Source: an uncultured Gammaproteobacteria bacterium (GTDB taxonomy: Bacteria; Patescibacteriota; Microgenomatia; UBA12405). Taken from it: a stretch of 64,000 bases of DNA. The DNA is taken from the NCBI GenBank assembly GCA_964544275.1, contig CAZIZX010000005.1:4720-68719 (forward strand), in the 5' to 3' direction. Both the position numbers and the translations under genes were made by a program. Shown piece by piece: positions 27,962-55,366 of the stretch (its first letter is position 1; the number at the start of each line of letters is the position of its first letter). The notes beneath the pieces are model-generated. The model worked only from the letters and a program-made list of their open reading frames with translations, ran no database searches and was not told the origin of the DNA.

Positions 27962-28876
27962 TTAAAAAAGTGAGTCTTGTTTTAAATTACTGGGTTTTTC
28001 AAAAATCTCAAGATTGGCTTTTTTGAGGCGAGAGAGGAGAGATTTGAAATTGTAGGTCTGAAAAACTTTTTCTAAACCTAAAACTTGATCTGGGGTAAAC
28101 TTGAACTTCTTGAGACTAAAATCCAGAGGAATGTTGTCGATAAGAGTGGCCAGTTTCTGGGAAAGGTAGGCGTCGTTTTTGTTTTTTTCAAGTTTTTCTT
28201 TGATGGAAGGTTTGATTTGGTCAAGATGTTGATAAATATTATCTAAATTAGAATATTGATTGAGCAAATCAGTGGCAACTTTGGGGCCGATACCAGCAAC
28301 GCCGGGATAATTATCAGACATGTCCCCCATCAAGGCTTTAAGGTCGACTACCTGATCAGGGTCAACACCCAATTTTTCCCGGACAACCGAGCGGTCAATA
28401 ATTTGGGTGTGGGACAGACCACGAAGCGGCATAAGCAACTGAGTTTTGTCGTCAACAAGCTGCATTAAATCCTTATCGCCGGTAATAATGGTAATGTTGT
28501 CAATGTTTTTTTTGGAAAGGGATTTGCGATTAATGGTAGCAATTAAATCATCGGCTTCAAATCCGCCAATGGCAAAATTAGAGAGAGACGCATCTTGAAG
28601 AGTAGATTGGAGCAAGGGAAGCTGGGAAACCAGTTCCCGGTCAGGAACTTTTCTTTTGGACCGATAACCAATAAACTCCTGGCTGCGAAAGGTGGGACCG
28701 GGCGAATCCAGACAAACAACAAGATATTTGGGGTTGAGGTTGTCTAGGGCAGAAAGAAGCATGGAATAAAACCCATAAATGGCGTTGACCGGCTGGCCGT
28801 TTGAGGTGAGCGGGGGCATTGAATAATATGCCCGGTGAATAATGGCATGGCCGTCAATGATCAGTAATTTAGACAT
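27962..28876 (-). CDS. Stand-alone 5'-3' exonuclease (Pol I N-terminal/FEN-like)
   Basis: MSKLLIIDGHAIIHRAYY PIN-like N-terminus and H3TH region GIGPKVA. Confidence 0.8.
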   Translation of the reverse strand: MSKLLIIDGHAIIHRAYYSMPPLTSNGQPVNAIYGFYSMLLSALDNLNPKYLVVCLDSPGPTFRSQEFIGYRSKRKVPDRELVSQLPLLQSTLQDASLSNFAIGGFEADDLIATINRKSLSKKNIDNITIITGDKDLMQLVDDKTQLLMPLRGLSHTQIIDRSVVREKLGVDPDQVVDLKALMGDMSDNYPGVAGIGPKVATDLLNQYSNLDNIYQHLDQIKPSIKEKLEKNKNDAYLSQKLATLIDNIPLDFSLKKFKFTPDQVLGLEKVFQTYNFKSLLSRLKKANLEIFEKPSNLKQDSLF

Positions 28877-28938
28877 AGCCTATTATATTAGAAATTTGAC
28901 AGTTAAAAAAACCTTGTTTCTATTGATAAAATTAGTAG

Positions 28939-29847
28939 ATGGAACAACATCCGATACCTCAGCAGATTTCGTCCTACGAATTCAAGCTGGTGGGAGAAAT
29001 GACTTTAAAACAATTTGTGAAAGCGGCAGCAGGAGTGATTATTGCCTTGTTGATAAATGCCAGTGGAATCATCTTTTTTATAAAGTGGCCATTAATGTTA
29101 TTTTTTGGAGGAGGCGGACTATTGTTGGCGTTTGTCCCCTATGAGGATAGACCGCTGGAGACTTGGGTGATGGCGTTTGTCAGGTCGATATACTCACCAA
29201 CAATTTTCGTTTATAGAAAGAAAAAAACGATTAAGATAACCCCAGTTGAAGTCAAGAAGGAAGAGGAAAAGAAGGAGGTGGTTGAAGAAGAGAGCACAAA
29301 AGTTAAAAAGGACGAAAAGAAAGTAAGAGAGTTTATTTCGTCGTTACCTTCGGTAAAAAGAGAAGAAAAGAAAGAGGAAAAGGAAGAGGTGGTACTAATT
29401 AAAAAGGACGTGATTATAAAAGATGTAAATCCCGAAATTCAAGTTGATAAAAAAGCGACAGAGGCAAATGCCAGCAGTAACAAAGAAGAATGGAGAGATC
29501 AAAAAAGTGATTTAAATTTGCAAAGGAGAAGATTAGAAGCTACGGGCGAAACGTCTTTTGGAACTATCCCAATGCCAGACATTCCAGAAGTTGCCAACGT
29601 ATTAGTGGGAATGGCAACCGATGTTGACGGCAAGATAATTGATGGAGCGATAGTCGAAATTCAAGATGATGTGGGCAATCCAAGCCGAGTATTAAAAACG
29701 AATTCTTTGGGGCAATTTAGAACTTCAACTCCAATGGCAAACGGGAAATACTTAATTATAACGGAAAAAGAAGGTTATGATTTTCATCGAATAAGTGTCG
29801 AATTAAAGGGAGAAATAGTTCAACCAATAAAAATTATCAGCAAATAA
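28939..29847 (+). CDS. PrgI-family-like T4SS membrane protein with K/E-rich linker and C-terminal CarboxypepD_reg-like beta-sandwich
   Basis: N-terminal ~100 aa: EFKLVGEMTLKQF then two TM helices (AAAGVIIALLINASGIIFF, LMLFFGGGGLLLAFVPY), as in PrgI proteins that precede VirB4 in Gram-positive T4SS. 302 aa is longer than the typical ~120 aa. Confidence 0.55.
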   Translation: MEQHPIPQQISSYEFKLVGEMTLKQFVKAAAGVIIALLINASGIIFFIKWPLMLFFGGGGLLLAFVPYEDRPLETWVMAFVRSIYSPTIFVYRKKKTIKITPVEVKKEEEKKEVVEEESTKVKKDEKKVREFISSLPSVKREEKKEEKEEVVLIKKDVIIKDVNPEIQVDKKATEANASSNKEEWRDQKSDLNLQRRRLEATGETSFGTIPMPDIPEVANVLVGMATDVDGKIIDGAIVEIQDDVGNPSRVLKTNSLGQFRTSTPMANGKYLIITEKEGYDFHRISVELKGEIVQPIKIISK

Positions 29848-29879
29848 TCTTGGGATAAATTTAGGTTATCATATAACAT

Positions 29880-30587
29880 ATGCCAAGTGATCCTTTAAAA
29901 ATTGCCATAAAAGGAAGTACTCAAGAACATTTGCCAATCGAGGATGTGGTAGATGGTATTGTGGTGCTGAAAGACGGATCGTGCTCGATGGTTTTGCAAT
30001 TGTCGTCGGTGAACTTTGATTTGTTGTCGGAACGGGAACAATCAGCTTTGGTGTTTGCTTATGGCGGTATTTTGAATTCACTCAATTTCATGGTGCAGAT
30101 TATTATTCATTCAAACAGTAAAGATATTAGTGTATATTTAAAAAATTTAGCGGCAGCCCAGGAAAAACAAGAAAATCCGCAGTTAAAGGAACGAGTGGTG
30201 GCGTATCGTAAGTTCGTGGAGGAAACCGTAAAAAGAAACGATGTTCTGTCAAAGTCATTTTATGTGGCGATACCATTTTCTATAATGGAACTGGGAATCA
30301 GCAGCGCTAAAGGTCAAATATTTAATTCCCTACCCTTGCCCGGAAAAAGTAGCGGAGAGTTGCCATTTTCCAAAGAATATATTTTAGAAAAAGCTAAAGC
30401 TAGTTTGGAACCGAAAAAGGATCATTTGGTAAGATTATTTTCACGCTTGGGGCTGGACATAAAACCACTAGGGACAAAGGAGTTGATTGAGCTTTTTTAT
30501 AAAATATACAATGAAAGTACGGCGGTGAATCAAAAAATTCAAACGTTAAATTATAACGCACCAGTGGTAACAAGTACTGAAAAATAA
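29880..30587 (+). CDS. Hypothetical T4SS-associated protein (between PrgI-like and VirB4)
   Basis: Tightly packed in the operon; the N-terminal ~80 aa resemble the N-terminal region of the adjacent VirB4 only loosely. Confidence 0.4.
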   Translation: MPSDPLKIAIKGSTQEHLPIEDVVDGIVVLKDGSCSMVLQLSSVNFDLLSEREQSALVFAYGGILNSLNFMVQIIIHSNSKDISVYLKNLAAAQEKQENPQLKERVVAYRKFVEETVKRNDVLSKSFYVAIPFSIMELGISSAKGQIFNSLPLPGKSSGELPFSKEYILEKAKASLEPKKDHLVRLFSRLGLDIKPLGTKELIELFYKIYNESTAVNQKIQTLNYNAPVVTSTEK

Positions 30588-30590
30588 AAA

Positions 30591-32999
30591 ATGGATTTTT
30601 TAAAAAAAATAATAAAGAAGGAAGAGAAGGCCGATATGCCGAAAGCTAGTGCTTCGGTGACGGCGAATAATAATGGAAGCAAGCCTTTTGAGGAAGGTTT
30701 GGTGTCGACAAAGGATATTATTGCACCATCAGCCATAGAGGTTGATTTTAACCACATAAGGATTGATGATAAATACTATCGGACATTGTTTGTGGCCGGG
30801 TATCCAAGATTTGTGGGAATAAACTGGTTGTCACCGCTAATTAACTTTGATGCTTCACTAAATGTGTCAATGTTTATTTACCCGACGGATGGGAAAGAAA
30901 TTTTGGATGATTTGAGAAGAAAAATTACGGAAATGGAGGCAGAGCTGAGTACAGATATTCAAAGAGGACGGATCGTGAATCCGGCTACTCAGGCTAAATT
31001 AGAAGATGCTTTGTCTTTGCAAGCAGACCTAGTCAAAGGGGAGGAGCGGTTTTTTCAATTCGGACTTTACATCACTATATCGGCGGAATCGGTGGAAGAG
31101 TTAGACCGGATAAATAAAAACATCGAAGCGTCTTTGGGAGCATTATTAATTATCAGCAAGAAAGCAACTCTTCAAATGGAAGATGGATTTATGACCACTC
31201 TACCCATATGCAGCGACAAACTCAGCATCACTAGGAACATGGACACGACCTCACTGGCAACAACCTTCCCATTTGTGTCGTCTGACTTGTCCGATAACAA
31301 AGGGATAATGTACGGAATAAACCAACACAACGGGTCGTTGGTCATTTTCGACCGATTCAGCATGCCGAATTATAATTCGGTAGTATTTGCTACGGCCGGT
31401 GCCGGTAAGTCCTACATGATTAAGCTGGAAGCAATCAGATCATTAATGTTTGATACAGACGTGATCGTGGTCGACCCTGAAAATGAATACAGAAGTTTGT
31501 GTGATGCGGCAGGCGGCCAGTACATTGCTTTTGGCTATAGTGAGAATTCTAAAATCAATCCATTTGATCTATCTTTGACAGTGGAAGAGGAAGGGGAAAA
31601 TTCGTTGAATTCCAAGATACTATCATTACATAAGTTGTTTAAGCTAATGGTGGGAGAAATGACGCCGATTGAGGAGTCAATTTTGGACCGGGCAATAATG
31701 GATGCTTATAAAATGAAGGGGATTACTCCAGATCCAGATACACAAAGTAAGGAATCTCCACTGATTGAGGATTTATATAAGTCGCTTATCGGAACAGAGA
31801 GCAAGGAAGCTCAGAGTTTGGCAGCCAGGTTAGAAAAATATATTAAGGGTTCTTTTGCGGGTATATTTAACCAAAAAACTACTGTAAATTTAAACAACCG
31901 GTTTGTGGTGTTTGGCATTAAAAACTTAGAAGAAAGTCTAAGACCAATTGCCATGCATATAATTCTGGACTACATCTGGACCACGGTTAAAAAAGAGCTT
32001 AAAAAGAGAATTATGATCGTGGATGAGGCCTGGTATTTGATGCAATATCCAGATTCGGCGGCGTTTTTGAGAGGGGTAGTTAAACGAGGTAGAAAATACT
32101 ACTTAGGAGTGACGACTATTACCCAGGATGTGGATGATTTTTTGGAAACACCGTATGGTAAGGAAATTGTGACCAACAGTTCAATACAGATATTGCTAAA
32201 GCAACACAGTGCGGCCATAGATAAAATTGGTGAGGTTTTTTATCTTTCTGAAGGTGAAAAACAATTATTGCTGACGGCGGACAAGGGAGAAGGTATTTTC
32301 TTTGCCGGGCAAAATCATGTGGCTATAAAAGTGATCGCTTCAGAAGATGAACACAAATTAATAACATCGAACCCAGAAGAGATATTGAAGATGAAGGCGG
32401 AGGGAAAGGTAGTAACAATGGAAAATAAAAACTTGCTTATTTCAAATCAAACACTGCCGATCAACCCAAGCAATATTCAAGTAGAAGAAGAGCCGGAGAA
32501 GGTTGTTTCTCCAGTAGTAGAAGTGAAGAATGAAATAAAACAAGCTGAGACAGGAAAAGGTGAGGAAAAGCCAATAGAAACAAAACCATTAATTGATAGT
32601 TCAAGTGCCCGGTTCAGAACAGAGGTGGTCGGAGGGGATGACGAAAATGAAGGATTGCTTCAAAGAAAAATTAATGAAATGGAAAAAGTTGAGCAGGATA
32701 AAATAGATGATTTTATCAGGCAAGAAGTAGAGGCAGTTAAAGATGAAGAAGAGGAAATACCCTTGAGAGAATCACAACCGACACCATCTTTTGAAGCGCC
32801 AAAGGTGGTAAAACTTGGAGGAGGAAATATCGGGAGTAAGCCAATTTTTGTCAGTCAAGAACCGAAAATACAACAACCCCCACAATTGAGTAATAAGCCT
32901 AAGCCGGATTTTGAAGAAAACAACCAAGATAAAAAGATAGATACCAATAAAGATGATAAAAACGATTATGACTCACTTTTCGGTGATGGAATTGTTTAA
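30591..32999 (+). CDS. virB4: VirB4/TraC/PrgJ-family type IV secretion ATPase with ~200-aa low-complexity C-terminal extension
   Basis: Walker A ATAGAGKSY, Walker B IMIVDEAWYLM. Overall 802 aa with CagE/TrbE/VirB4 domain order. E/K/P-rich tail from about aa 600. Confidence 0.85.
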   Translation: MDFLKKIIKKEEKADMPKASASVTANNNGSKPFEEGLVSTKDIIAPSAIEVDFNHIRIDDKYYRTLFVAGYPRFVGINWLSPLINFDASLNVSMFIYPTDGKEILDDLRRKITEMEAELSTDIQRGRIVNPATQAKLEDALSLQADLVKGEERFFQFGLYITISAESVEELDRINKNIEASLGALLIISKKATLQMEDGFMTTLPICSDKLSITRNMDTTSLATTFPFVSSDLSDNKGIMYGINQHNGSLVIFDRFSMPNYNSVVFATAGAGKSYMIKLEAIRSLMFDTDVIVVDPENEYRSLCDAAGGQYIAFGYSENSKINPFDLSLTVEEEGENSLNSKILSLHKLFKLMVGEMTPIEESILDRAIMDAYKMKGITPDPDTQSKESPLIEDLYKSLIGTESKEAQSLAARLEKYIKGSFAGIFNQKTTVNLNNRFVVFGIKNLEESLRPIAMHIILDYIWTTVKKELKKRIMIVDEAWYLMQYPDSAAFLRGVVKRGRKYYLGVTTITQDVDDFLETPYGKEIVTNSSIQILLKQHSAAIDKIGEVFYLSEGEKQLLLTADKGEGIFFAGQNHVAIKVIASEDEHKLITSNPEEILKMKAEGKVVTMENKNLLISNQTLPINPSNIQVEEEPEKVVSPVVEVKNEIKQAETGKGEEKPIETKPLIDSSSARFRTEVVGGDDENEGLLQRKINEMEKVEQDKIDDFIRQEVEAVKDEEEEIPLRESQPTPSFEAPKVVKLGGGNIGSKPIFVSQEPKIQQPPQLSNKPKPDFEENNQDKKIDTNKDDKNDYDSLFGDGIV

Positions 33000-33022
33000 A
33001 ACAAGGTAAGGGTTGCTATAAT

Positions 33023-35833
33023 TTGGTATCGATGAGCGGATTTAATGTTGCCAACATATCTTCTGTGGAAAATTGCCAATCACTGGCTCTGTGTTTAAGG
33101 GAACTAGATAAAACTTCTAATGTTAGACAAAATCTATATCTAGAAAATATTTTAGAAAGGGTATTTAGGGCTGGAGGATTTAGAGTAGATGTAAGAAAAG
33201 AATCGCTGACGGGAGTGGCCAAGGCTTTGGAGAGTCTGAGTCCGGATCAGGTCGAGAGGGTCAACAGGGTGCTTTTGGAAGAAATGGGGGCGATTGACGA
33301 AGCAACCGAAAAGGATTTGCAAAATGCAGTGGTACCAACCGCCCAACTGGAACAATTACTGAAAGAATATGAAGAACACCTGAAAAATGGTATGAGTCCA
33401 GGTGAAGCATTGGAGAAAATCACCGAAGCAAACAAGGGTATTGTGGCCAGATCTCAAATAGAGGATTTAATTAGAAGACAAAGCGAAGCTTATCAAAAAA
33501 TTGTTGATGATCTGAGGGAAGTTTCAGCAGAAAGCTTGGGAGAGGAAACCATAAAAGAATTAGCTAAAAAGACGGCAACAGAGGTGGCAGTGAGTAGTAA
33601 AGAGCTGGAGATCGAAATTAAGGCTGCCGGGCAGAGTGTTCCGTCGATAGTGGTTGAAAAATTAGCAGAGGAATTAAAAGAGGTGGGTGTACAGAGAATA
33701 CTGGAAAACAATATTTCGCGAGACGGTTTTGACAAAAAGGTGGAGAAGGCAGTTGAGGAAGTGAGTCAGGACTTAACCAAGCAAATAATAAAGCAATATG
33801 CAGAAGGAGCAAAAACAAGAATTGAGCTTCAGGTGGATATAAGAAAAAGAGCTTTTGAGATAACTGATAATTTATTGGCTGAGCTTCAATCTAGTGATCC
33901 GATACTGGCTGGGTTGGTGGAGAAAGCCGGGGTTGGTGTCAGGATGGAACTGGCCGACAGGATAAATCAGGAAATTATTCTGGGGCTAAGTGTTCCCGGA
34001 CAATTAGAGGAGAGGGTTGTATCTGAGATAAGCAGAGGCACTCCGTCCTTGGGAGAAGAACAGGTCGAAAGAGTTGAAATGGCAGTAAAGTCGATAAGAG
34101 TACAGGTAACAAGCTGGACTGAAAACAATAAAATTGAATTAACTAAACCACAGGGAGATTGGTTTGAAAGAAATATCGTTGATTCGTTTGTGGGAGAAAA
34201 TGGTCAGTTGCAAATAAACGAGTGGCGGGACGTAAGGCAATACGCAAAATTGGTAAGACAGATATATTACCCTTCGGACGGAAACCAGGTAGATGCATAC
34301 AAAAATGAGTCAATGGAACTTGCCAGAAGCAGGAATCAAAGTCCAGGAAAAATAGATAATGCATGGAACGATTTGAGAGGATTAACGGCGATGTTGCGGA
34401 TGAAACCGGCAGAACTAAATAATTTTATTAATAATTACAGGAATGCTCAGGAAAAATTGAAAGGTTTGAACCTACCGTTCAAAGTAGGTGAGTGCCGGGC
34501 CTTGGACGGTTTAATTAAAGCCATTGAAAGCAGTCCACAAACAAGAAATTTTTTGATTTATGCTCAGAAATACATTGCTCTGAACAATTCAATAAACAAG
34601 ATTGGAGCGACGATACTAACAAAAATTGGAGCTAAAGAAGTAGCGTTAAAAATGGTAGGGAAGCTGGGCGGGCAAGCGATGGTGGAATTTACCAAAAATG
34701 CTTTGGTGGTGTTTGCTGAACACGGGACAACAACTGGATTGAAGTTGATATTAAAAGGAATTGTGACAGGAGGAGTGAAGGCGGGGGCAGCAGGAGCCGG
34801 GGCTGGAGCGGGAGCAAGTGGAGGTGTGGCGGCAGCAGTAGCAGCTTTCCAAGCATTACCGGTGGTGGGACAAGTAATATTGTTGGTGGTTGGGGCAGTT
34901 GTTTTGATTAAGTCAGTGGTGGCTCCGTTGGTAAAAAAGATTAAGAAGGTGTTGGGATCGTTGAACTTGGAGTTGGGAATGACTAAATTTTTCAAGGAGA
35001 ATTTTGGTAATTTTGTAGGCGGAATATTAAATGGAGCCGTAAAAGTGGGAATGGTAGTGGTTGGCATGCCTGCTTTGATAATAGGCACAACGATGACTGC
35101 TTTTTTAACTCCAGTTTTAATAATTTTTTTTGCAGTATTCGTATTATATCAGTTCATTTTTTTGCCTAATTTGATTTCGAGTATAGTTCCACCAAGGTAC
35201 GCCGGGTCGGGGGCAGGGGAAGAAATCGGTGATGGTGGTTTTACCCCTTCTGAACCAATATATTCTGAGGATTGTGATAGTAGTCCGGCTTGCGCAATTA
35301 TTGAACATATACTGCATGATTTGGGTTACCAAAGAGCTGTTGGGCGAGATACAAGAGAACACAAGAAAAATGTTGATGAGATTGCAAGTAAGTTAAGAAA
35401 TTGGGACAGGACTTTTCCTGATTTTCCCAGTTTTAATTTGAATAGGTTTGTTGAAATTATGATAAGTAATTCAACGAATAACACCAGTGGTAGACCTTAT
35501 TTTCAATGTTTAGGGTTTTCTCTGGCGGCGGACTTAAATTTACCAAGAGGCAGGGAAATTAGTCATTATATGGCAGGTAATCATCCTGGTTGTATTTCAG
35601 TTGACCCAAAAAATGCTGGGGTTGGTGATCATATAATGTATATGGGACCTCATATTATGATCTTGTCAGTACTAAATAGTCCTGATGAATACGGAAAAAA
35701 AAGTGGTGTAATATCGGATGTAAACTATGATTACGAAGGAGCATTTAGGAATCGTTATTTTCCAGACTTCGATGAGTTTTTTAATAGTTTAAAAAGTAAT
35801 AAAGGGGCAGTTAAGATATTAAGATGCAAATAA
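33023..35833 (+). CDS. Large membrane protein: coiled-coil N-terminal half, Gly/Ala-rich TM cluster, C-terminal CHAP/NlpC-P60-like cysteine peptidase (cell-wall hydrolase) domain
   Basis: GAAGAGAGAGASGGVAAAVAAF and several TM helices (aa ~520-720). C-terminal YFQCLGFS (Cys) ... GDHIMYMGPHIMIL (His) is a papain-fold amidase pattern. Position after VirB4 resembles the PrgK/VirB1 role. Confidence 0.5.
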   Translation: MVSMSGFNVANISSVENCQSLALCLRELDKTSNVRQNLYLENILERVFRAGGFRVDVRKESLTGVAKALESLSPDQVERVNRVLLEEMGAIDEATEKDLQNAVVPTAQLEQLLKEYEEHLKNGMSPGEALEKITEANKGIVARSQIEDLIRRQSEAYQKIVDDLREVSAESLGEETIKELAKKTATEVAVSSKELEIEIKAAGQSVPSIVVEKLAEELKEVGVQRILENNISRDGFDKKVEKAVEEVSQDLTKQIIKQYAEGAKTRIELQVDIRKRAFEITDNLLAELQSSDPILAGLVEKAGVGVRMELADRINQEIILGLSVPGQLEERVVSEISRGTPSLGEEQVERVEMAVKSIRVQVTSWTENNKIELTKPQGDWFERNIVDSFVGENGQLQINEWRDVRQYAKLVRQIYYPSDGNQVDAYKNESMELARSRNQSPGKIDNAWNDLRGLTAMLRMKPAELNNFINNYRNAQEKLKGLNLPFKVGECRALDGLIKAIESSPQTRNFLIYAQKYIALNNSINKIGATILTKIGAKEVALKMVGKLGGQAMVEFTKNALVVFAEHGTTTGLKLILKGIVTGGVKAGAAGAGAGAGASGGVAAAVAAFQALPVVGQVILLVVGAVVLIKSVVAPLVKKIKKVLGSLNLELGMTKFFKENFGNFVGGILNGAVKVGMVVVGMPALIIGTTMTAFLTPVLIIFFAVFVLYQFIFLPNLISSIVPPRYAGSGAGEEIGDGGFTPSEPIYSEDCDSSPACAIIEHILHDLGYQRAVGRDTREHKKNVDEIASKLRNWDRTFPDFPSFNLNRFVEIMISNSTNNTSGRPYFQCLGFSLAADLNLPRGREISHYMAGNHPGCISVDPKNAGVGDHIMYMGPHIMILSVLNSPDEYGKKSGVISDVNYDYEGAFRNRYFPDFDEFFNSLKSNKGAVKILRCK

Positions 35834-36228
35834 GATTAATTAATAAAAAAATCTTATATATCGGGTTAGCTTTAGTATTCTTGCTAATCCTTCCTTGGGG
35901 AGGAGGCGGAAGTAAAGTAGAAAAAGACGAGACGGAATTGGGAGGTGGAGAGGTAATAATTGATCCAAATGATTATTCTGGATTCGGACCAACAGAAGAA
36001 GAGGCCTTAGAATTAATTGATGAATTCGAGTCGAACAAAAATGATTATCCTCTGTGGAATAAACTACCTTATGAAGGAAGAGGGTATAAAATAAGCAAAT
36101 ATTCAAAACCGCTGACGGTGGTGGTTTATCCGATAGGGTTAGATAAAGAAGTGGTAGAGAGGGAGGTAAGGCAATGGATTAAAGATAATGGCGGGGATGA
36201 GGTAAGGCATCAAATAGAATGGCGGTAA
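35824..36228 (+). CDS. Small secreted/membrane-anchored protein, paralog A
   Basis: N-terminal TM/signal; shares DYPLW..LPY.G.GY...Y...L.VV....DKE.VE..V..WIK.NG.D...H.IEW with the next gene. Confidence 0.5.
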   Translation: MQIRLINKKILYIGLALVFLLILPWGGGGSKVEKDETELGGGEVIIDPNDYSGFGPTEEEALELIDEFESNKNDYPLWNKLPYEGRGYKISKYSKPLTVVVYPIGLDKEVVEREVRQWIKDNGGDEVRHQIEWR

Positions 36229-36272
36229 TATATTTAATTTGAATTTTTAAATTAAATCCCTAGAATTAGATA

Positions 36273-36680
36273 ATGAATGGGAGTTTTATGAAAAGGTACT
36301 TTTTGATAATAGTGTTGACCTTTGTAGCTACTGGAATGGTGGTGACTAGACTTAAATACCAAGAAGATGGTTTTGAAAGAGAAGTTATTGAGACTAAAAA
36401 CTTAAATACAGAAATTGAGAGTGAACCAGACTTGATAATTACTCCGACTGAGGCGGTTGAGTCGGAAGACGAAGTGTTTGAACTTGACCCCGATTATCCT
36501 TTATGGAGATCTTTGCCTTATTACGGTAAAGGTTATATTGTAGATAGATATGTTGAAAGTTTAAAATTGGTAGTAAAAATTAAAGGTATTGATAAAGAAA
36601 TAGTGGAAGAGGACGTTTATGAATGGATTAAAGAAAATGGAGTTGATCCAGAGAGTCACACAATCGAATGGGAGGATTAA
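36273..36680 (+). CDS. Small secreted/membrane-anchored protein, paralog B
   Basis: Same conserved C-terminal motif as paralog A. Its stop overlaps the dnaN stop on the opposite strand. Confidence 0.5.
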   Translation: MNGSFMKRYFLIIVLTFVATGMVVTRLKYQEDGFEREVIETKNLNTEIESEPDLIITPTEAVESEDEVFELDPDYPLWRSLPYYGKGYIVDRYVESLKLVVKIKGIDKEIVEEDVYEWIKENGVDPESHTIEWED

Positions 36681-37795
36681 TCCTGAAGACGGACCGGCAT
36701 GATGATATGGGTAAATTGAGGGTCGGACTGATCACGGAAGAGAGCTGGGGAAAGAGATTCATTCAGTTCAATGACAAGTTCATCACCTTTGCAGACAGAA
36801 AGGAAGTCGGAAACAAATTTGTAGTTGAAAGCAATGTCTAAATTACCACCTTCAACCTTAGCTTCGACAGTGGTTTTGTTTTGACCAATTTGAGGGGCAT
36901 TGGCTGAAACTTCAACGTGAGAACCGGAAACGCCAAAGCGAATGATATTGGCAGACTCGCGAGCAAAAACGGAGGCAATTCTGACAGCTTGAGATAATTC
37001 TTCTTTGTTTAAGGTGAGTCTGGTATTAAAGGAGGAAGGTATTATTCGCTGATAATCAGGAAACTCACCTTCCACCAGACGAGAGGCAAGCTCTAGGCCG
37101 TCTAGGACGAAAATTAATTGATGTTCGTCTACTGATAGACCTAAAGTAAGCTTTTTGTCGTTTCTGGAGAGTTTAGTGATTTCAGAGAGGCTTTTGCCGG
37201 GGATCAAAAGGGTGAGATTGTCGGAGGGTAGAGAAATTGGATTAACTAATTTTATTTCTTTGAGAGAAAGTCGAAAGCCATCAGTAGCAGCTAAAGTCAG
37301 CTGATTGCTGGTAAAACGACAAAGAACAGCGGTTAAGACAGGGCGAGTATCATCGGTGGCGGCAGAAAAAACGATTTGACTGACTGACTCCCGAAGTATT
37401 GACATATCCAGATCGATGGACTGGTTAGCATCAAGAGAAGGGGTTAGTGGAAAATCACCGGGAGGAGTAATGGTAAAAGTGGATTGAGCTTTGGGAGAAG
37501 AGACAGTTAACAGATTACTGGTGTTAACTTCGAGATCAAGACGGCCGGGTGGTAGGTAAGAGACAAACTCGGTAATTTCTTTGGCCGGAATAGTCAAACT
37601 TCCCTCAGAATCAATCTTGGCACCAATCCAACAGCTGATACCTAATTCCAAGTTGGTAGCCGATAATTTTAGTTGGCCGTTGTTGGTAGAAAGAAAAATA
37701 TTACTCAAAATTGGAAGTTGGGATCGGGTTGAAACAAAGCGAGAAACATTACTTAAAGCAGTGGAAAAGTTTTCCTGTAGAAGGGAGAGTTTCAT
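36677..37795 (-). CDS. dnaN: DNA polymerase III beta sliding clamp
   Basis: MKLSLLQENFSTALSNVSRFVS..., 372 aa, three-domain clamp pattern. Confidence 0.9.
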   Translation of the reverse strand: MKLSLLQENFSTALSNVSRFVSTRSQLPILSNIFLSTNNGQLKLSATNLELGISCWIGAKIDSEGSLTIPAKEITEFVSYLPPGRLDLEVNTSNLLTVSSPKAQSTFTITPPGDFPLTPSLDANQSIDLDMSILRESVSQIVFSAATDDTRPVLTAVLCRFTSNQLTLAATDGFRLSLKEIKLVNPISLPSDNLTLLIPGKSLSEITKLSRNDKKLTLGLSVDEHQLIFVLDGLELASRLVEGEFPDYQRIIPSSFNTRLTLNKEELSQAVRIASVFARESANIIRFGVSGSHVEVSANAPQIGQNKTTVEAKVEGGNLDIAFNYKFVSDFLSVCKGDELVIELNESLSPALFRDQSDPQFTHIIMPVRLQD

Positions 37796-38117
37796 TGTCT
37801 TATATTAACAAAAAGAAGGTGTTCAGTAAATAATAAAACCGGGTTAGTTAAATATGATAAATAATAAATAACTAGTAGCAGTAGTATTAGGTGGAGTGTA
37901 TAAGTGCAGAGATGGAAACAATTTCCTAAAATATCGAGGTAGATGTAAAAATTAGGGTGTGGATTAGATTGATTTAAAGTTGGTTTTCCATAAAAAACGG
38001 AGAAAGTGGCTTATAAGCTTGCTTGTTGTTTGGGTAAGGTTCGGGGGAAAAAGAGAAAATTAATTGTGGACAAGTCGGTGGATAAATAAAGGAAATTTGT
38101 GGATAAAAATTTTTCTT
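37796..38117. promoter_or_regulatory. Candidate oriC: AT-rich dnaN-dnaA spacer with DnaA-box cluster
   Basis: TGTGGATAA (38098-38106, perfect reverse complement of TTATCCACA), GGTGGATAA (38077-38085), TGTGGACAA (38065-38073), TGTGGATTA (37958-37966); 322 bp with AT-rich stretches. Confidence 0.5.
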
Positions 38118-39519: not shown

Positions 39520-39528
39520 TTATCCACA
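39520..39528. promoter_or_regulatory. Consensus DnaA box TTATCCACA upstream of dnaA (a second box TGTGGATAT lies at 39608-39616 upstream of rpmH)
   Basis: Exact 9-mer match in the divergent dnaA/rpmH promoter region. Confidence 0.5.
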
Positions 39529-39631
39529 TTGATGATATAAGAGTTTTCCACAAAAGAAAAGATATCAAAGAAGAGTTGGTTTGGAAATTTGCAAATATAA
39601 TCTAAGGTGTGGATATGTTAAAATAACCGCT

Positions 39632-44312: not shown

Positions 44313-47252
44313 ATGATTAATATGAATAAGGCTTTGCCGACAGCAATTATTGTCGGAATCGAGCATTTTGTGGCTCAGCGATTAGCGGCAATATTGTTGT
44401 CCAGGGATATTAATGTAATTGGGGTGGGAGAGTATGCGGGAGGGTTTCAGGAAGAAAAGAACTATGAATATCGGGTATCTTTGGATGAGGTTGAGGAAAA
44501 GGTAAATTATGTATTTGATTTTGTGGGCGAGGTAGAGAGTTGGGAGTTAGCGGTAAAAGGCCAGGCAAAGCTGACAGTGGTGTCAGTTAACAAAAAAAAT
44601 ATTGGCAGAGAGGTAGTGGCGGAATTGGCGAAAAGTAACTTTAACTGGAGAGTGGTGGAGACTTTTGGAGTTTATGGTGTTGGAATGGAGGAGGATGGTT
44701 TTTTGGCGGAAGCGATCAGGCAGGCGGTGAGAAATGAAAACTTGAGATTGCCGCGAGTGGGAAAGATTTACAGACTTTTGAGCGTCGAGGATGCGGTGGA
44801 AGTGATTTTGAGGGCAAGTTTTCTGTCGGGGACGGAGGGGGAGGTTTATAAAATTTGGGGAATGGAGACAAACACAGCAGAGGTGGCCGAAGTGTTGATA
44901 GATGAGGCCAAGATGACAAAAATGAAGGTGATGCAGGAAGAAATTGATTTGGAAGAGGAGGATGAGGCTGAAATGCTGGAAAGCAGGAGAAAACTAAGAT
45001 GGCAACCGGAGGTGGGCTTTTCGGAGGGAATAAAGGAGACGTTACAATATTTTTTTTCCAAGGTGGACGAGGAAAACCGGAGAAGAAAGAATGAAAAGCG
45101 AAATATAACAAGAGAGGTAGTGGAAGAAATAGTGGAAAAGCCGAGGTTGATGGAGGTGATGGTGGAGGAGGAAGATGAGGTGGTGAGGGAAGTAGAGCCA
45201 GAACCGGAATTGGAATTAGTAGTGGAGGAGGAAGATGAGGAAGAAGAGATTCAACCTTTGGAACTGAAAAATTCAAATATGAGGCCGATAGCTGAGGAGG
45301 TAGATGAAGAAGTGGAGGAGAGAGTGGTTGAGTCGAAAATGGAAAAAGAGGAAGAGAGAGAGAAAAAAGCGGAGCTGTCGGAAGAAATTATGATCCCAAG
45401 AAGAAAAGCCAATCCTTGGAAATATTGGTATGTTGGGGTAATTTTGAGTTTGTTTTTGGTTCTGGTAATACCGGTGTGGTTGGGAGTGGTAGGGGTAGGC
45501 ACTTATAGAGGTGTAGTTAAAAGTCTGGAGTTAATAGAGGAGAGAAAGTTGGATGAGGCTGAAGAATTAATTGATAAAAGTTTAGAGCGGGTGAAAAGAA
45601 CGGATAAAAGGATTGATGAATTAGGGCTAAATAGTCTGAGCTGGTTGAGAAATTATCAGAAATTATTAAAAGTGTCTGAAGGGGTGATGGTGACTGGTTT
45701 GAGTGGGATGGAACTTTTGAAAAGCGGCGATGCGATGAGTGAGGCTGTTTTGGGTGAGAAAGAAATAGACTGGGACAATCAGGTTGGCTTGGTGAGGTTG
45801 AATATTAACGATCTTTTTGAAGAAAGTGGGGTGTTGCAGGCGAGGTTGGGTGGGGATTGGACATGGTTGCCATCAAGGTGGCGGGCTTGGCCACAGAAAG
45901 GAGCGAGGCAAATTGATGAGTTGAGGAAGGATTTGGAGCTGGGAGATCAAATACTTGAAGTAATGCCGGAGATTTTGGGATTGGATGGTAAAAAAAAGGA
46001 ATATATGGTTTTGCTGCAAAACGAAACGGAATTGAGGCCAGGAGGAGGGTTTATCGGATCGGTGGCATTTTTGAGTTTTTTGGAGGGTAGGTTAACTGGG
46101 TTTGAGGTTAAAGATGTTTATGAAATAGACGGTCAGTTGAAGGGGCACGTGGAGCCGCCGGTGGAAATAAGAGACTATTTGGGTGAGGCTGGTTGGTTTA
46201 TGAGGGATGCTAATTGGAATCCAAACTTTATGGTTTCGAGCGCTCAAATACAATGGTTTTTGGAGAAGTCAGTGGGGAAGAAGGTGGATGGAGTAATCGG
46301 GATGAATTTGGCGGTGGCTAAAGAGCTGCTGGGGGTGGTGGGGGAAGTGACAGTAGCGGATTTTCGGGAAAAGGTTAATAAAGACAATTTATATGAGCAA
46401 GCACAGTTTTATGCCGAGACAAAATTTTTCCCCGGATCAATTCAGAAAGCCAGTTTTTTGGGAGGAGTGAGTAAGCAACTATTTGAGGAAATTAAATTAA
46501 TGGATAGTAATAAGAAGTTGAGATTGGGAAAAGTGCTGTTGACTATGCTGGAAAGCAATGATTTGCAAATGGCGTTTAACGATAAAAAGGTTTCCAGTAA
46601 AATGGCGGAAATGAGTTGGGACGGGGCGATGTATGTGGGAAAGTGCAGGAACGAGGATTGTGTGAGTGATTATTTGTATGTAGTTGAAGCCAATGTGGGA
46701 GTGAACAAGGCTAATTATTTTTTGTACAGGAATATTGAGCAGTTGGTGGATATTGGTCAGCGATCGGTGAGTAGGATCGTTAAAGTTAATTACGAAAATA
46801 CGGCCAAGAATAGTAATTGGCCGGGAGGGGATTACAAAAATTATTTAAGGGTATATCTGCCAAACAATATCAACGTAGCTCAGGTGAGTATAAGTGACAG
46901 TGACAAACCGGAATCTTTGAAAATATATAGTCGAGACGAATTAAAAATCGGACAGTTTGGGCAAAAGACAGAATTGGGGTTCCTGGTGACAGTGCCAGTA
47001 AGTAGCAAGAGAACAGTAGAGATAAGATATTCGAGTGAGATGAGCTTGAGCGACAAGGACAAGTATTCTTATATTCATTACATTCAAAGACAGCCGGGCT
47101 ATGGTGACACGGCGGCGGTGGTATTGGTATCGATGCCAAGTTCGTGGCAAGCTTTGCAGGTACAACCATCGGCGAGCCTGGTGGGGGGAAAGTTGTTATT
47201 TAACCAAAAGTTGGACAGGGATATTAAAATGGGGGTGGAGCTGGCAAGATAG
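44313..47252 (+). CDS. Giant membrane-anchored protein: N-terminal Rossmann-like domain, Glu-rich low-complexity linker, single TM helix, large C-terminal DUF4012-like extracytoplasmic domain
   Basis: E-rich tract around nt 45060-45380, TM helix WKYWYVGVILSLFLVLVIPVWLGVVGVG, C-terminal GGGFIGSVAFL...RDANWNPNF. Confidence 0.5.
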   Translation: MINMNKALPTAIIVGIEHFVAQRLAAILLSRDINVIGVGEYAGGFQEEKNYEYRVSLDEVEEKVNYVFDFVGEVESWELAVKGQAKLTVVSVNKKNIGREVVAELAKSNFNWRVVETFGVYGVGMEEDGFLAEAIRQAVRNENLRLPRVGKIYRLLSVEDAVEVILRASFLSGTEGEVYKIWGMETNTAEVAEVLIDEAKMTKMKVMQEEIDLEEEDEAEMLESRRKLRWQPEVGFSEGIKETLQYFFSKVDEENRRRKNEKRNITREVVEEIVEKPRLMEVMVEEEDEVVREVEPEPELELVVEEEDEEEEIQPLELKNSNMRPIAEEVDEEVEERVVESKMEKEEEREKKAELSEEIMIPRRKANPWKYWYVGVILSLFLVLVIPVWLGVVGVGTYRGVVKSLELIEERKLDEAEELIDKSLERVKRTDKRIDELGLNSLSWLRNYQKLLKVSEGVMVTGLSGMELLKSGDAMSEAVLGEKEIDWDNQVGLVRLNINDLFEESGVLQARLGGDWTWLPSRWRAWPQKGARQIDELRKDLELGDQILEVMPEILGLDGKKKEYMVLLQNETELRPGGGFIGSVAFLSFLEGRLTGFEVKDVYEIDGQLKGHVEPPVEIRDYLGEAGWFMRDANWNPNFMVSSAQIQWFLEKSVGKKVDGVIGMNLAVAKELLGVVGEVTVADFREKVNKDNLYEQAQFYAETKFFPGSIQKASFLGGVSKQLFEEIKLMDSNKKLRLGKVLLTMLESNDLQMAFNDKKVSSKMAEMSWDGAMYVGKCRNEDCVSDYLYVVEANVGVNKANYFLYRNIEQLVDIGQRSVSRIVKVNYENTAKNSNWPGGDYKNYLRVYLPNNINVAQVSISDSDKPESLKIYSRDELKIGQFGQKTELGFLVTVPVSSKRTVEIRYSSEMSLSDKDKYSYIHYIQRQPGYGDTAAVVLVSMPSSWQALQVQPSASLVGGKLLFNQKLDRDIKMGVELAR

Positions 47253-47634: not shown

Positions 47635-49617
47635 ATGAAGAAAAGAAATAGTTGGCAGGAGAAGATACAAAAGTTTTTTTTGGGTGAGGTTGATAATAAG
47701 AAAAAAGAGCCAAAAAAAAATGACGATTTGGGTTTGCCCAAGGAAATAATGGATAGGTTACCCAAAGGGACAAAGATCAAGAAAGTTAAGGTTGGTCCGG
47801 CTCAAATTTTGAGGTTTTTGGTGTATTTGGTTTTGGGGTTTTGGTTACTGTCGAGCTTGAGACAGATGTTTGTATCAGAGGAAATGGTGCAGGTGCCTTT
47901 GTCGAGAGTGATTGAAACCATAAAAAACGAGGAGGCTAGTAAGGTGACGGTAATGGATGATGAAATTTTGGTGGAATTGAAGGAAGGGGGGACGGTGCTG
48001 ATGGCTTCAAAGGAACCAGGTTCATCAATGACGGAGATCCTGCAAAGAGAAAATATAGATATTTCAAATATTGAGTTTGAAATTGAAAACAGGCGGGGCT
48101 GGAAGCTGATAGGAGATATTTTTAGCTTATTGTTGACAGTGGGATTACCTTTGTTGTTCATTATCTGGTTTCTGGGCAGACAGACAGGTGGGTCGGGTGG
48201 CGGGATGTTTGGTTTTGGTAAATCGACGGCTAAGTTATTTGTGAAGGGTAAGCAGAACTTAAGCTTTAAAGATGTGGCCGGGGTGACTGAAGCAAAAAAT
48301 GATTTGGAGGAAATTGTTGATTTTTTGAAACATCCGGAAAAGTATAAAAAAGTGGGAGCAAGGGCTCCTAAAGGAGTGCTTTTGGTGGGCCCAGCGGGGG
48401 TAGGAAAGACGCTTTTGGCCAAAGCGGTGGCAGGGGAGGCAGATGTGCCGTTTTATTCAATGGCGGGCTCTGAGTTCATGGAGATGTTGGTGGGAGTAGG
48501 GGCGAGTAGAGTAAGGGATTTATTCGGGACGGCCAAAAAAGCAGGGAAGGCAATTATTTTTATTGATGAGATTGATGCTATCGGTAGAATGAGAGGAGGG
48601 CTAGATGGAGGTCACGGTGAAAGAGAGCAGACTTTGAACCAAATATTGGTAGAGATGGATGGTTTTGAGGCTAATACAGCAGTGGTGGTGTTGGCGGCTA
48701 CTAACAGAGGTGATTTGTTAGATCCAGCTTTGTTGAGGCCAGGCAGATTTGATCGAAGAGTAATTTTGGAAATGCCGGATATTGAAGCTCGGAAGGAGAT
48801 TATTAAAATTCATGCTAAAGGTAAGCCTTTTGATGAGACAGTAAATTGGGAGGCAGTGGCCAGGAGAACGGTGGGGTTTTCGGGAGCAGATCTGGAAAAT
48901 ATGTTGAATGAAGCGGCAATATCGGCGGCCAGGCAAAATAATACCAAGATATTTATGGCGGATATTGAAGATGCGGCTTTGAAGGTAAAATTGGGAGCAG
49001 AAAAGAGAAGGCAACAGAGCGAGGAGGACAGGTTGATGACGGCTTATCATGAAGCAGGGCATGCAATGGTAAATTATGTTGAAGATTTGGATCCGGTACA
49101 CCGAATTTCAATAGTATCTCGAGGAATGGCATTGGGCTATACACTAATACCGCCAAAGAAAGACAGGGTACATGAGACCAAACAGAGACTGATAAAGCAA
49201 ATGGCGATGGCGATGGGAGGAAGGGCGGCCGAGGAACTGGTATTTGGAGACATTACTACCGGAGCGGCTTCGGATATATCGCATGCAACCAAAATTGCCA
49301 GAGATATGGTAGTGGAGTGGGGAATGTCGGACTTGGGGCCAGTAAATTATGGGCCGCAGGTTGACGTGAATGATTTTGGTAAGGCATATCTGGAACCGTC
49401 AAAAATTTCCGACATGATGATGTCGAGAGTGGACGAAGAAATTAAAAAATTAGTGGGAACCGCTTTGGATGAGGCAAGGAGAGTGTTGAAAGAAAACCGA
49501 GCCAGTTTGGATGAAATTGCCAAAGTGCTGGTGGAGAAAGAGAGCCTGGATGAAGAGGAGTTTGAAGCTTTGGTAAAAAAGGGAAAGAAGAAGGGCGGCA
49601 AAGACTTACAGGCTTGA
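47635..49617 (+). CDS. ftsH: ATP-dependent zinc metalloprotease FtsH
   Basis: Walker A GPAGVGKT, second region of homology, HEAGHAM zinc motif, two N-terminal TM helices. Confidence 0.9.
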   Translation: MKKRNSWQEKIQKFFLGEVDNKKKEPKKNDDLGLPKEIMDRLPKGTKIKKVKVGPAQILRFLVYLVLGFWLLSSLRQMFVSEEMVQVPLSRVIETIKNEEASKVTVMDDEILVELKEGGTVLMASKEPGSSMTEILQRENIDISNIEFEIENRRGWKLIGDIFSLLLTVGLPLLFIIWFLGRQTGGSGGGMFGFGKSTAKLFVKGKQNLSFKDVAGVTEAKNDLEEIVDFLKHPEKYKKVGARAPKGVLLVGPAGVGKTLLAKAVAGEADVPFYSMAGSEFMEMLVGVGASRVRDLFGTAKKAGKAIIFIDEIDAIGRMRGGLDGGHGEREQTLNQILVEMDGFEANTAVVVLAATNRGDLLDPALLRPGRFDRRVILEMPDIEARKEIIKIHAKGKPFDETVNWEAVARRTVGFSGADLENMLNEAAISAARQNNTKIFMADIEDAALKVKLGAEKRRQQSEEDRLMTAYHEAGHAMVNYVEDLDPVHRISIVSRGMALGYTLIPPKKDRVHETKQRLIKQMAMAMGGRAAEELVFGDITTGAASDISHATKIARDMVVEWGMSDLGPVNYGPQVDVNDFGKAYLEPSKISDMMMSRVDEEIKKLVGTALDEARRVLKENRASLDEIAKVLVEKESLDEEEFEALVKKGKKKGGKDLQA

Positions 49618-53728: not shown

Positions 53729-55345
53729 TTATGAGCCTGAGGTGGATTGAGATGGGGGTTCTCTAGTGGTACTATTCCGAGAAGCTTGGTCTTCTGCGGT
53801 GGTTTGTTGGGTTCTCCTTTTGGCAAACCAATTCGTTGCTTGAGAAATTCGTTCTTCGGCTTGCTTCCCAACTTCTTCTTGAGCATATCTTTCAAGTCCG
53901 CCTCGGATGTTCTTGGTGATAGGTGCAATAATTGGCATATTACCAAGTCCTTCTCCGACAGCACTACCCCAAGGAGACGGTTTGAGTTGGAAGATGGCTT
54001 GAGGGATAAGCTCTGGGAGTTTGGAAACCATAAGTAGTCCTCCCATGCCGATAAAAAAGGGAACGAGGCCTGCACCTGCGGATAAAATTTGAGGGGTCCA
54101 AATTGTAGCTCCAGAATACTTTATTGATTCGACGATGACATTTAGTATGATCAGGAAAATTAAGGATATAGGAAAGACGGAAAGATTGGCAACTAAATCG
54201 ATAATCCAGGAGGAAAAGCCCATTTTGGAGTTGGGAAAAGCTCCAAGACCAATTTCGAGAGGGGCTAAAATAATTTTGACAATAGCTGCGACATAGCATT
54301 TTATGAGTCCGAAAAAAAATTTGAAAAGAAAAAAGACGATGATAATTGAGAATATCAGGGTAACTATTCCGGCTCCAATAGCTGCACCTTTCAATCCGAC
54401 GAGAACAGTACCAATACCCGGTAGGGCAGATCCTGTGATAGCGCCGACAACTCCTCCGATGACAGCACCAATCAGAGCGAGATATTCAACGCCTGAATTT
54501 CTGATCATAAGGTAGAAGGAGGATACAAGATCAAAATTGTTAAGAGACCTATAGTTACTGGAAGCGATACCAATGTTTTGGAGGGCACCGGAAAATAAAT
54601 TTTCGTTCAAATTTGTGATCCCGCGGGCTTGAAAGATGGCAGCAATAGCTATAGCTTGGATCAGGTTTAGCAAGTCAATAACCAGACCGGCAATGGCGTA
54701 AGAGAAGGTGACTAGAATGAGGGTCATGAAAAGGCGAGGAAGAGCATTTTGTATGGTAATTGTGGCTTGAGGGCTAATCTTGATGCGAAGAATGATCATG
54801 AAACCAATGGCGATGAGTATTAAGGAAGAAAAGATGTAAACAATATTACGGAAGGTTCGCCAAATATCAAGTAGTGGTTGGAGGCCAACAAAACCAACAC
54901 CTTGTTGGGCATAGGCGGGTTTACCGAGAAAACTATTTTTCATTTGAGCTATATATTCGACCCCGGAAGCCGGAGGACTAAAGGTGGCAGCAATCAGATT
55001 GTTGACAGAACCGACAACGCCACCTGGTATCCAAACAATAGGTTGGCCGTTTTGGTCATACACTTGGCCTTCGAGAAACTCATCGGGAGCGGTTTCAAAT
55101 TCAATCAGGGCGTTGAGAGTGCCCATGACATTAGATTTAATTGCTTCTTTACCTAGCCAGGTTTCCATATTGGTACCTTTTGACCAAGCTTCTTTGGTAT
55201 CAAGAAAAATGTTGTTTTCTTGGGCAGAGACTGAGGATGTAAATATCGAGGAAAAAGCAAGAGCAAAAAGCAGAAAGACCAGAAATCCGGTATTTGAAAA
55301 AATTCTTGTAAGCAGGCGGTCTTTGACCATATGAAATTTTATCAT
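53729..55345 (-). CDS. VirB6/TrbL-like polytopic membrane protein with ~170-aa N-terminal extracytoplasmic domain
   Basis: Signal peptide then soluble domain, then at least 8 TM helices. Last gene of the pilin/transglycosylase operon. Confidence 0.45.
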   Translation of the reverse strand: MIKFHMVKDRLLTRIFSNTGFLVFLLFALAFSSIFTSSVSAQENNIFLDTKEAWSKGTNMETWLGKEAIKSNVMGTLNALIEFETAPDEFLEGQVYDQNGQPIVWIPGGVVGSVNNLIAATFSPPASGVEYIAQMKNSFLGKPAYAQQGVGFVGLQPLLDIWRTFRNIVYIFSSLILIAIGFMIILRIKISPQATITIQNALPRLFMTLILVTFSYAIAGLVIDLLNLIQAIAIAAIFQARGITNLNENLFSGALQNIGIASSNYRSLNNFDLVSSFYLMIRNSGVEYLALIGAVIGGVVGAITGSALPGIGTVLVGLKGAAIGAGIVTLIFSIIIVFFLFKFFFGLIKCYVAAIVKIILAPLEIGLGAFPNSKMGFSSWIIDLVANLSVFPISLIFLIILNVIVESIKYSGATIWTPQILSAGAGLVPFFIGMGGLLMVSKLPELIPQAIFQLKPSPWGSAVGEGLGNMPIIAPITKNIRGGLERYAQEEVGKQAEERISQATNWFAKRRTQQTTAEDQASRNSTTREPPSQSTSGS

Positions 55346-55366
55346 AGAGATGGTTGCTTGGCTAAG

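Follow-up and report, generated by a model that had tools for sequence, protein, structure and literature searches.

A chromosomal type IV secretion system of the Patescibacteria type beside dnaN and dnaA in a Shapirobacteria-like genome

Introduction

The Patescibacteria carry a chromosomal, non-conjugative type IV secretion system (T4SS) that was described between 2023 and 2025. In a survey of 3,035 Patescibacteria genomes (Quinonero-Coronel et al. 2025, Microb Genom, PMC12102498), the VirB4 ATPases formed a monophyletic clade nested in the MPF_FATA class, TrsD was the commonest VirB4 partner, and PrgI/VirB3-like proteins were present. VirB2-like pilin arrays occurred especially in Microgenomatia and Saccharimonadia, relaxases were almost absent from the systems, and in Microgenomatia and Paceibacteria dnaA and dnaN were frequently found in the neighbourhood of virB4. 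Within Microgenomatia, VirB3 was seldom found near virB4, VirB6 was scarce, and VirB1 was rarely linked. Here we report on a 64-kb stretch of contig CAZIZX010000005.1 (hereafter the window, meaning the whole stretch analysed), which comes from a Shapirobacteria-like genome of class Microgenomatia (Patescibacteria/Candidate Phyla Radiation, CPR), and on the T4SS that is encoded there by an operon at 28939-36680 and a second locus at 53729-60363. The system is the one already described.

Few machines of the cultivated Patescibacteria have been shown to be essential for their epibiotic life, and this T4SS is among them. According to the accounts in PMC12857230 and PMC12102498, transposon sequencing of Southlakia epibionticum (Wang et al. 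2023) showed that growth on the host requires the T4SS, the pilin array and the hydrolases downstream of virB4, and that this requirement does not depend on ComEC. A 2026 preprint suggests that T4SS pili occur at the parasite-host interface and that the parasite feeds on host RNA.

The nearest conjugative systems are those of Firmicutes and Mycoplasma. The MPF_FATA systems of pGO1/pSK41 (trs) and pIP501 (tra) have the same order of small membrane protein, TrsD/TraD and TrsE/TraE (VirB4) as the window, together with a membrane-anchored CHAP hydrolase, TrsG/TraG; they differ in being plasmid-borne, in having a relaxase and a coupling protein, and in lacking VirB2-like pilins. In pCF10 of Enterococcus faecalis, PrgI (VirB3-like), PrgJ (VirB4) and PrgK (a multidomain wall hydrolase) likewise follow one another in this order, but there is no TrsD, and the system is conjugative and pheromone-regulated rather than part of the chromosomal core. 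The T4SS of Mycoplasma integrative and conjugative elements (ICEs), with the pilin-like Mbov_0395 and the VirB4 Mbov_0397, is the source of the NCBIfam model that ranked first for the window pilins (38.6 bits) and of those that ranked second for the window VirB4 (288 bits) and the TrsD-like protein. These elements, however, are mobile, and all scores of the window proteins against their models lie under the curated equivalog cut-offs.

The T4SS operon

The operon consists of six co-directional genes on the + strand (Table 1). The gaps between genes 1 to 4 measure 32, 3 and 23 bp, genes 4 and 5 overlap by 10 bp, and a 44-bp gap precedes gene 6, whose stop overlaps the convergent dnaN stop by 4 bp. 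A first-pass annotation of the stretch had drawn four co-directional, tightly packed genes here, a T4SS-like module of a PrgI-like protein, an unknown protein, VirB4 and a papain-fold hydrolase, about 850 bp from dnaN. All four open reading frames (ORFs) are real and not chance ORFs, and profile and fold evidence back the module with its PrgI-like protein, VirB4 and hydrolase. The distance from the end of ORF 4 to dnaN was measured at 844 bp, but it is filled by two further genes of the operon, and the six genes in turn make up only half of the system, the other half being the second locus. Predicted promoters and terminators in 28700-37900 were as many as expected from shuffled sequence, and no conclusion was drawn from them.

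Table 1. Features of the window discussed in the text; positions are those of the window.
Feature	Position	Strand	Basis
Two surface-protein genes (Fib_succ_major; fn3 + CarboxypepD_reg)	1-3228		
Gene 1, VirB3/PrgI-like membrane protein, 302 aa	28939-29847	+	Pfam PrgI, CarboxypepD_reg; transmembrane (TM) prediction
Gene 2, TrsD/TraC-like protein, free-standing homolog of the VirB4 N-terminal domain, 235 aa	29880-30587	+	NCBIfam; Pfam match of an ortholog
Gene 3, VirB4 ATPase, MPF_FATA/CD1110 type, 802 aa	30591-32999	+	NF045971, Pfam, PDB
Low-complexity tail of VirB4, residues ~580-802	32330-32999	+	
Gene 4, 936-aa membrane protein (933 aa if from the ATG at 33032)	33023-35833	+	TM prediction, fold, homology to relatives
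CHAP-like catalytic domain of gene 4, residues 745-936; candidate catalytic Gln828-Cys829, His877, Asn901	35255-35830	+	Alignment, AlphaFold2 model
Gene 5, small bitopic protein, 134 aa: N-terminal TM segment and ~65-aa conserved C-terminal domain	35824-36228	+	ORF, TM prediction
Gene 6, paralog of the gene 5 protein, 135 aa	36273-36680	+	ORF, TM prediction
dnaN	36677-37795	-	Pfam
Four DnaA boxes	37958-38106		At most 1 mismatch
dnaA	38118-39551	-	Pfam
Three DnaA boxes	39520-39616		
rpmH, rnpA, yidD, yidC, jag	beyond dnaA	+	Pfam, sequence
979-aa DUF4012 protein	44313-47252	+	
DUF6909 protein	49606-51309	-	E 1e-166
749-aa protein	51354-53603	+	
538-aa polytopic membrane protein, VirB6-like channel candidate	53729-55345	-	TM prediction, Foldseek
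857-aa protein, putatively secreted or anchored, with an SLT lytic transglycosylase domain at its C-terminus, predicted VirB1-like function	55367-57940	-	Pfam SLT
Six tandem VirB2-like pilin genes	59926-60363, 59602-59922, 59261-59602, 58900-59259, 58439-58819, 57979-58593	-	Pfam T4SS_pilin PF18895
tRNA	63584		

Gene 3 encodes the VirB4 ATPase that had been proposed. It scored 400 bits against NCBIfam NF045971 conju_CD1110 (cut-off 325) over model positions 185-734 and matched Pfam P-loop_TraG at E 1.2e-31. Its closest solved structure is 4AG5, the C-terminal domain of a Thermoanaerobacter VirB4 (E 6e-49), and its Walker A (GAGKS) and B (IVDEAW) motifs are both intact. Its homologs number 7,967, and among the best 120 of them the entries with a named source were Patescibacteria. 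The conserved core spans residues ~38-580. The remaining ~220 residues form a low-complexity tail rich in K, E, P and Q, which is missing or different in most relatives, whose matches stop near residue 600. In one relative, L027, VirB4 (L027:7127-11137) is 1,336 aa long and has an insertion of ~650 aa right after the GAGK of Walker A; the insertion begins with Ser and ends in His-Asn followed by Ser, the junctions expected of a P-loop intein.

The 235-aa protein of gene 2, for which no identity had been offered, was recognised as TrsD/TraC-like. It matched NCBIfam TrsD/TraD NF041427 (E 1e-7), ends 3 bp ahead of virB4, and is 66-88% identical among Shapirobacteria-like relatives, and its ortholog at locus L032, on a 1.117-Mb contig, carries Pfam TraC-like PF26593. 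A search of PDB sequences gave no match for it. The protein also matched VirB4 models in their N-terminal parts, at positions 104-232 of VirB4_plasma and 3-117 of conju_CD1110, and the gene 3 protein matched the latter model from position 185 onwards; genes 2 and 3 together therefore correspond to one VirB4 with its N-domain encoded separately, as in the pGO1/pIP501 subclass.

Gene 1 encodes a protein in which a two-TM hairpin (residues ~25-66) is joined by a K/E-rich linker to a beta-sandwich (~222-287). Pfam PrgI matched residues 5-90 along almost its full length (model positions 1-89 of 91, E 1.5e-5), and CarboxypepD_reg matched residues 222-287 (E 3.1e-5), in line with the PrgI-family layout and beta-sandwich extension predicted before. 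One genome per species was scanned for relatives, which yielded 31 related loci. PrgI matched all 31 gene 1 orthologs collected from related loci at E <= 0.01 (best 4.4e-11), and CarboxypepD_reg matched 17 of these orthologs. The EFKLVGEMTLKQF segment ahead of the TM helices, already noticed as conserved, has four invariant residues in the ortholog alignment (F15, L17, T22 and F26). On these profile matches the PrgI assignment is firm when judged at the level of the family. The basic stretch RKKKTIK after the TM helices suggests, by the positive-inside rule, that the linker and beta-sandwich would lie on the cytoplasmic side.

Genes 5 and 6 encode small bitopic proteins of one family, which is kept at the same operon position across Microgenomatia; neither matched a Pfam or NCBIfam model. 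For a VirB8/NTF2 domain they are too short, and they were left without assignment.

The second locus

The second T4SS locus, which had been overlooked, lies on the - strand ~18 kb further on, beyond dnaA. It begins with six tandem pilin genes, all six of which scored above the gathering score of Pfam T4SS_pilin PF18895 (29.3-50.3 vs 26.6 bits). Two of the pilins (58439-58819 and 59602-59922) also matched NCBIfam NF045849, the Mbov_0395 pilin-like family of Mycoplasma ICEs, at 38.6 bits (cut-off 40). The MPF_FATA class is said to lack VirB2-like pilins (PMC12102498); contrary to this, the NF045849 match suggests that pilin-like proteins may exist within MPF_FATA.

Directly downstream of the pilin array, in the window as well as at L034 on the same contig as L032, lies the gene for the 857-aa protein, which has a hydrophobic N-terminal segment. 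Its residues 735-827 matched Pfam SLT at 7.3e-18, with further NCBIfam matches of EmtA/MltC type. Next to it, again also in L034, is the gene for the 538-aa protein with at least 6 hydrophobic/TM segments. It has 616 homologs, none with a Pfam domain, and the protein itself had no match in Pfam, NCBIfam or the PDB sequences. Its AlphaFold2 model (predicted local distance difference test, pLDDT, of 78) was compared by Foldseek with 350,542 PDB chains. The six best matches all came from the R388 T4SS stalk complex; the length of five of these chains is that of TrwI/VirB6, as in 8rtd_L (probability 1.00, E 0.016) and 8rt9_F (probability 0.99). By its modelled fold the protein is a VirB6-like candidate, and possibly a candidate for the VirB6 that has been reported as scarce in Microgenomatia.

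On the other side of this gene lies a gene for a 749-aa protein with an Arg-rich C-terminus, no family match and no TM segment. In L034 a 762-aa unannotated protein stands beside the VirB6-like gene, on the opposite relative strand to the window's 749-aa case. The 749-aa protein could be a further T4SS component or a substrate. Between the origin region and the second locus there are also genes for two large conserved proteins, a DUF6909 protein, whose gene adjoins the T4SS locus in L034 too, and a 979-aa DUF4012 protein (Table 1).

Comparison with the described system and proposed role

The two loci share with the Patescibacteria-clade T4SS (PMC12102498) an MPF_FATA-type VirB4, a TrsD immediately upstream, a PrgI/VirB3-like protein, a divergent VirB2-like pilin array, wall hydrolases adjoining virB4, the absence of a relaxase, and, as in Microgenomatia, a position near dnaA and dnaN. 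Since the published features match, the finding in the window is a rediscovery of a known system, and the module is not potentially new, as had been suggested; its missing relaxase and its dnaA/dnaN position had been published too. In principle, then, the window adds nothing new, and it is a clean Microgenomatia example with candidate genes for roles reported as missing or unlinked. Unlike the published picture of Microgenomatia, it has candidates for VirB3 (PrgI, two genes upstream of virB4), VirB1 (the CHAP-fold hydrolase directly downstream) and VirB6 (by fold, beside the pilins). All three escape standard hidden Markov model thresholds, and they may go beyond the survey for this class.

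We have high confidence in the identity of the system as a Patescibacteria-type T4SS. Very probably, the operon is the membrane-energising half of the chromosomal T4SS typical of Patescibacteria, derived from monoderm MPF_FATA conjugation machinery, with pilins, SLT enzyme and VirB6-like protein supplied by the second locus and a role in host contact and exchange. PrgI would tether TrsD and VirB4 at the membrane, and VirB4 would power the assembly of a VirB6-based channel and of a pilus built from variable VirB2-like subunits. By cutting peptidoglycan, the CHAP-like and SLT enzymes may let the apparatus cross a cell wall, and the machine would serve contact and macromolecule exchange with a host bacterium and not conjugation. 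A host-contact role is proposed because the T4SS is essential in the cultivated Saccharibacterium Southlakia epibionticum; by this analogy with Saccharibacteria genetics, together with the missing relaxase, we hold a non-conjugative, host-interaction role with moderate confidence.

Several points weigh against this interpretation. The function of the apparatus is deduced entirely from homology, and in the literature we found no experimentally studied member of Microgenomatia. The window's own TrsD-like protein scored far under the curated cut-off (32 vs 200 bits), and its PrgI-like protein scored just under the Pfam gathering score (25.9 vs 27 bits). For the 538-aa protein the Foldseek E values are only 0.016-0.6 and the TM-scores 0.33-0.42. 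Because the predicted TM count of the 936-aa protein is ambiguous (3-5 passes), an extracytoplasmic position of its CHAP-like domain is an assumption; the enzymatic activity of the modelled domain is assumed as well. No VirB8-like component was identified in the window, and the negative for relaxase and coupling protein, given below, covers these 64 kb, so that one could lie elsewhere in the genome.

A machine for DNA uptake or release, like Helicobacter ComB or archaeal Ced, that supplies nucleotides or genes would also be a VirB4-based system with no relaxase or type IV coupling protein (T4CP) nearby, and in the ABY1 class T4SS genes stand beside comF, recG and radA (PMC12102498). Yet no competence gene adjoins either T4SS locus in the window, and a comEC deletion in Southlakia epibionticum abolished competence and left viability intact (PMC12857230), although the T4SS is essential there. 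Because comEC is dispensable and the T4SS is not, the essential role would not be DNA uptake through ComEC, and we regard a DNA machine as quite improbable.

Synteny and inheritance

In about 20 of the 31 related loci, the same order was found: PrgI, TrsD, VirB4, large membrane protein, 1-3 small N-terminally anchored proteins, the convergent dnaN-dnaA pair, and yidC-jag. The syntenic loci belong to Shapiro-, Woese-, Gottesman- and Daviesbacteria, and the lowest DnaA identity among them is 35%. The layout of two loci flanking dnaA is also repeated on the 1.117-Mb contig that carries L032 and L034, in a relative with 63% VirB4 identity. The GC content and skew of the operon equal those of its flanks.

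Nearly all non-overlapping ORFs of at least 110 aa in the 64-kb window were scanned with Pfam and NCBIfam models, and none of these ORFs matched a family of relaxases, coupling proteins (T4CP/VirD4), VirB11 or recombinases/integrases. This agrees with the earlier view, taken from the absence of VirD4, relaxase and VirB11, that the locus is not a typical conjugation system. Taken together, the synteny across Microgenomatia, the matching composition, and the lack of relaxase, coupling protein and integrase in 64 kb indicate a vertically inherited module. It is core, as its place in a conserved part of the chromosome had led the first-pass annotation to argue, and not mobile.

The same evidence bears on whether the operon could be an integrated conjugative element, or the decayed remnant of one, that came to lie near dnaN by chance. 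The nearest named families of VirB4, TrsD, PrgI and the pilins do belong to conjugative elements of Firmicutes and Mycoplasma. However, the gene order beside dnaN and dnaA is kept across class-level divergence, the composition is that of the flanks, the scanned ORFs of the window include no relaxase, T4CP or integrase, and a flanking tRNA is lacking, the window's only tRNA being at 63584 (Table 1); all ORFs and the Walker motifs are intact. An ICE or remnant was therefore rejected as hardly credible.

The two T4SS loci face each other across dnaA, each being transcribed towards it, in the window and on the contig with L032 and L034. If replication starts at dnaA and is bidirectional, both would be oriented head-on to it.

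The 936-aa membrane protein and its C-terminal domain

The gene 4 protein is helical and soluble, without TM segments, over residues 1-596, and the Gly/Ala-rich TM cluster that had been seen in it lies at ~597-723. It had no match of its own in Pfam or NCBIfam, and a word-indexed homolog search with it returned 4 proteins only. In a PDB profile search its body found designed helical bundles only and no detectable relative. The body was also tried as a VirB6 analog; hhalign against the VirB6-like family gave 20% probability over 55 TM columns, and the idea was rejected as unsupported.

For the last 192 residues, a search of 1.84 billion cluster representatives found only 14 relatives. In their alignment Cys85, His133 and Asn157 (Cys829, His877 and Asn901 of the full protein) are invariant and Gln84 is nearly so. 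The AlphaFold2 model of the domain, made from this alignment and of high confidence (pLDDT 89.5, predicted template-modelling score 0.87), has a helix at 85-92 that begins at the Cys, a strand at 133-140 that begins at the His, and the Asn just after a strand at 151-156. Foldseek matches of this model in the PDB were weak, with papain-fold enzymes as 3 of the 5 best, and by sequence the domain gave only chance matches to DesD, which were discarded. Pfam CHAP was matched directly by 5 of 17 members of the domain family (best E 1.7e-6), though not by the window protein itself. Fold, motif and transitive sequence evidence thus support the papain-fold (CHAP/NlpC-P60-like) call that had been made for this domain. 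Compared with the CHAP endolysin domains (Ly7917, LysGH15, PcsB) and the NlpC/P60 endopeptidases (MepS, CwlO), it is only 9-15% identical; four additional conserved cysteines and an extra helical subdomain of ~75 residues at its N-terminus set it apart from them. Its architecture is also unlike that of the plasmid systems. The pGO1/pSK41/pIP501 hydrolase has an N-terminal TM segment followed by SLT and CHAP, and PrgK has one TM segment followed by LytM, SLT and CHAP, whereas in the window protein a cytoplasmic-looking helical region of 590 aa and a TM cluster are followed by just one divergent CHAP-like domain, and the SLT domain belongs to another protein, encoded in the second locus.

In relatives, the gene after virB4 always encodes a large membrane protein whose C-terminal domain varies. 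This domain was Peptidase_M23 in L004, L007, L008 and P0124, VanY in L010, Amidase_3 + Peptidase_C39_2 in L014, Amidase_2 in L015, Peptidase_C39_2 in L018, CHAP in L029, a weak SLT in L031, and NLPC_P60 in L032. In its N-terminal helical region and TM cluster, the 936-aa protein is homologous to the M23- and NlpC/P60-bearing versions (profile E 1e-8 to 4.5e-32, and 3e-45 against L032), but their C-terminal domains gave no alignment with that of the window protein, and such swaps were seen among genomes whose VirB4 proteins are 76-84% identical. Since positional equivalents carry differing wall-hydrolase domains, the wall-cutting role appears to be conserved and the domain type not. A conserved helical/TM body with a repeatedly swapped C-terminal wall-hydrolase domain is possibly an increment over the published work. 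The 936-aa protein and the small bitopic proteins, at 27-58% identity, have also diverged much more quickly than TrsD and VirB4, at 70-88%.

These swaps among close relatives on a homologous body, the fast divergence, and the tiny size of the CHAP-like family would fit a different reading, in which the 936-aa protein and its positional equivalents are lytic warheads directed at the host, with a domain that is matched to the chemistry of the host wall and would break through the host envelope where the two cells touch, and not VirB1 analogs that open the cell's own wall; the separate SLT enzyme could then fill the self-wall role. However, a diversity of domains in T4SS-linked hydrolases is generally known to be usual in Gram-positive conjugation too (PrgK, pIP501 TraG, CwlT; see also PMC12102498), the 936-aa protein is predicted to be membrane-embedded and not secreted, which makes its reach to a host wall unclear, and no host is known. 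We consider host-directed warheads unlikely. More speculative, and somewhat less probable again, is the proposal that the Microgenomatia gene after virB4 encodes a lineage-specific membrane carrier, whose 590-aa helical region and TM cluster lack any known relative and whose lytic domain is exchanged on short evolutionary timescales because it acts on the wall of the host and not on that of the symbiont. If this were true, the host range of uncultivated CPR bacteria could be read from their genomes by the type of lytic domain; more generally, a swapped wall-hydrolase module is a possible determinant of host specificity that would be useful for predicting the hosts of uncultivated lineages.

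The dnaA region and other parts of the window

The module had been placed directly beside the replication origin, oriC. It does lie beside dnaN and dnaA, and DnaA boxes cluster on both sides of dnaA, four within 150 bp of the dnaA-dnaN spacer and three more just upstream of dnaA (Table 1); DnaA-box matches in the whole window number 38 vs 20.8 expected. These clusters fit an origin at dnaA. A sign change of the GC skew, however, was not found there. The skew is strongly positive over all 64 kb (+ strand G 17,514 vs C 8,862, +0.33 overall and up to +0.5), its third-codon-position value is +0.3 to +0.8 irrespective of the coding strand, and at dnaA (~38-39.6 kb) it merely steps from ~+0.25 to ~+0.45. 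The same one-signed skew was observed in the six Shapirobacteria-like relatives that reach dnaA (L001, L002, L004, L005, L007 and L008), whereas Daviesbacteria-type relatives show the normal sign change and L027 has a skew offset of the opposite sign (-0.35 and -0.20). Such patterns are mentioned in PMC7111523. The one-signed skew possibly reflects unidirectional replication or an origin elsewhere; on balance, the T4SS operon likely lies beside oriC.

At the start of the window, the stretch with two surface-protein genes has a GC content of 0.44-0.50 and almost no skew, unlike the remaining window. A public contig with the neighbouring genes ends inside this stretch, which is possibly a recent acquisition or a variable region.

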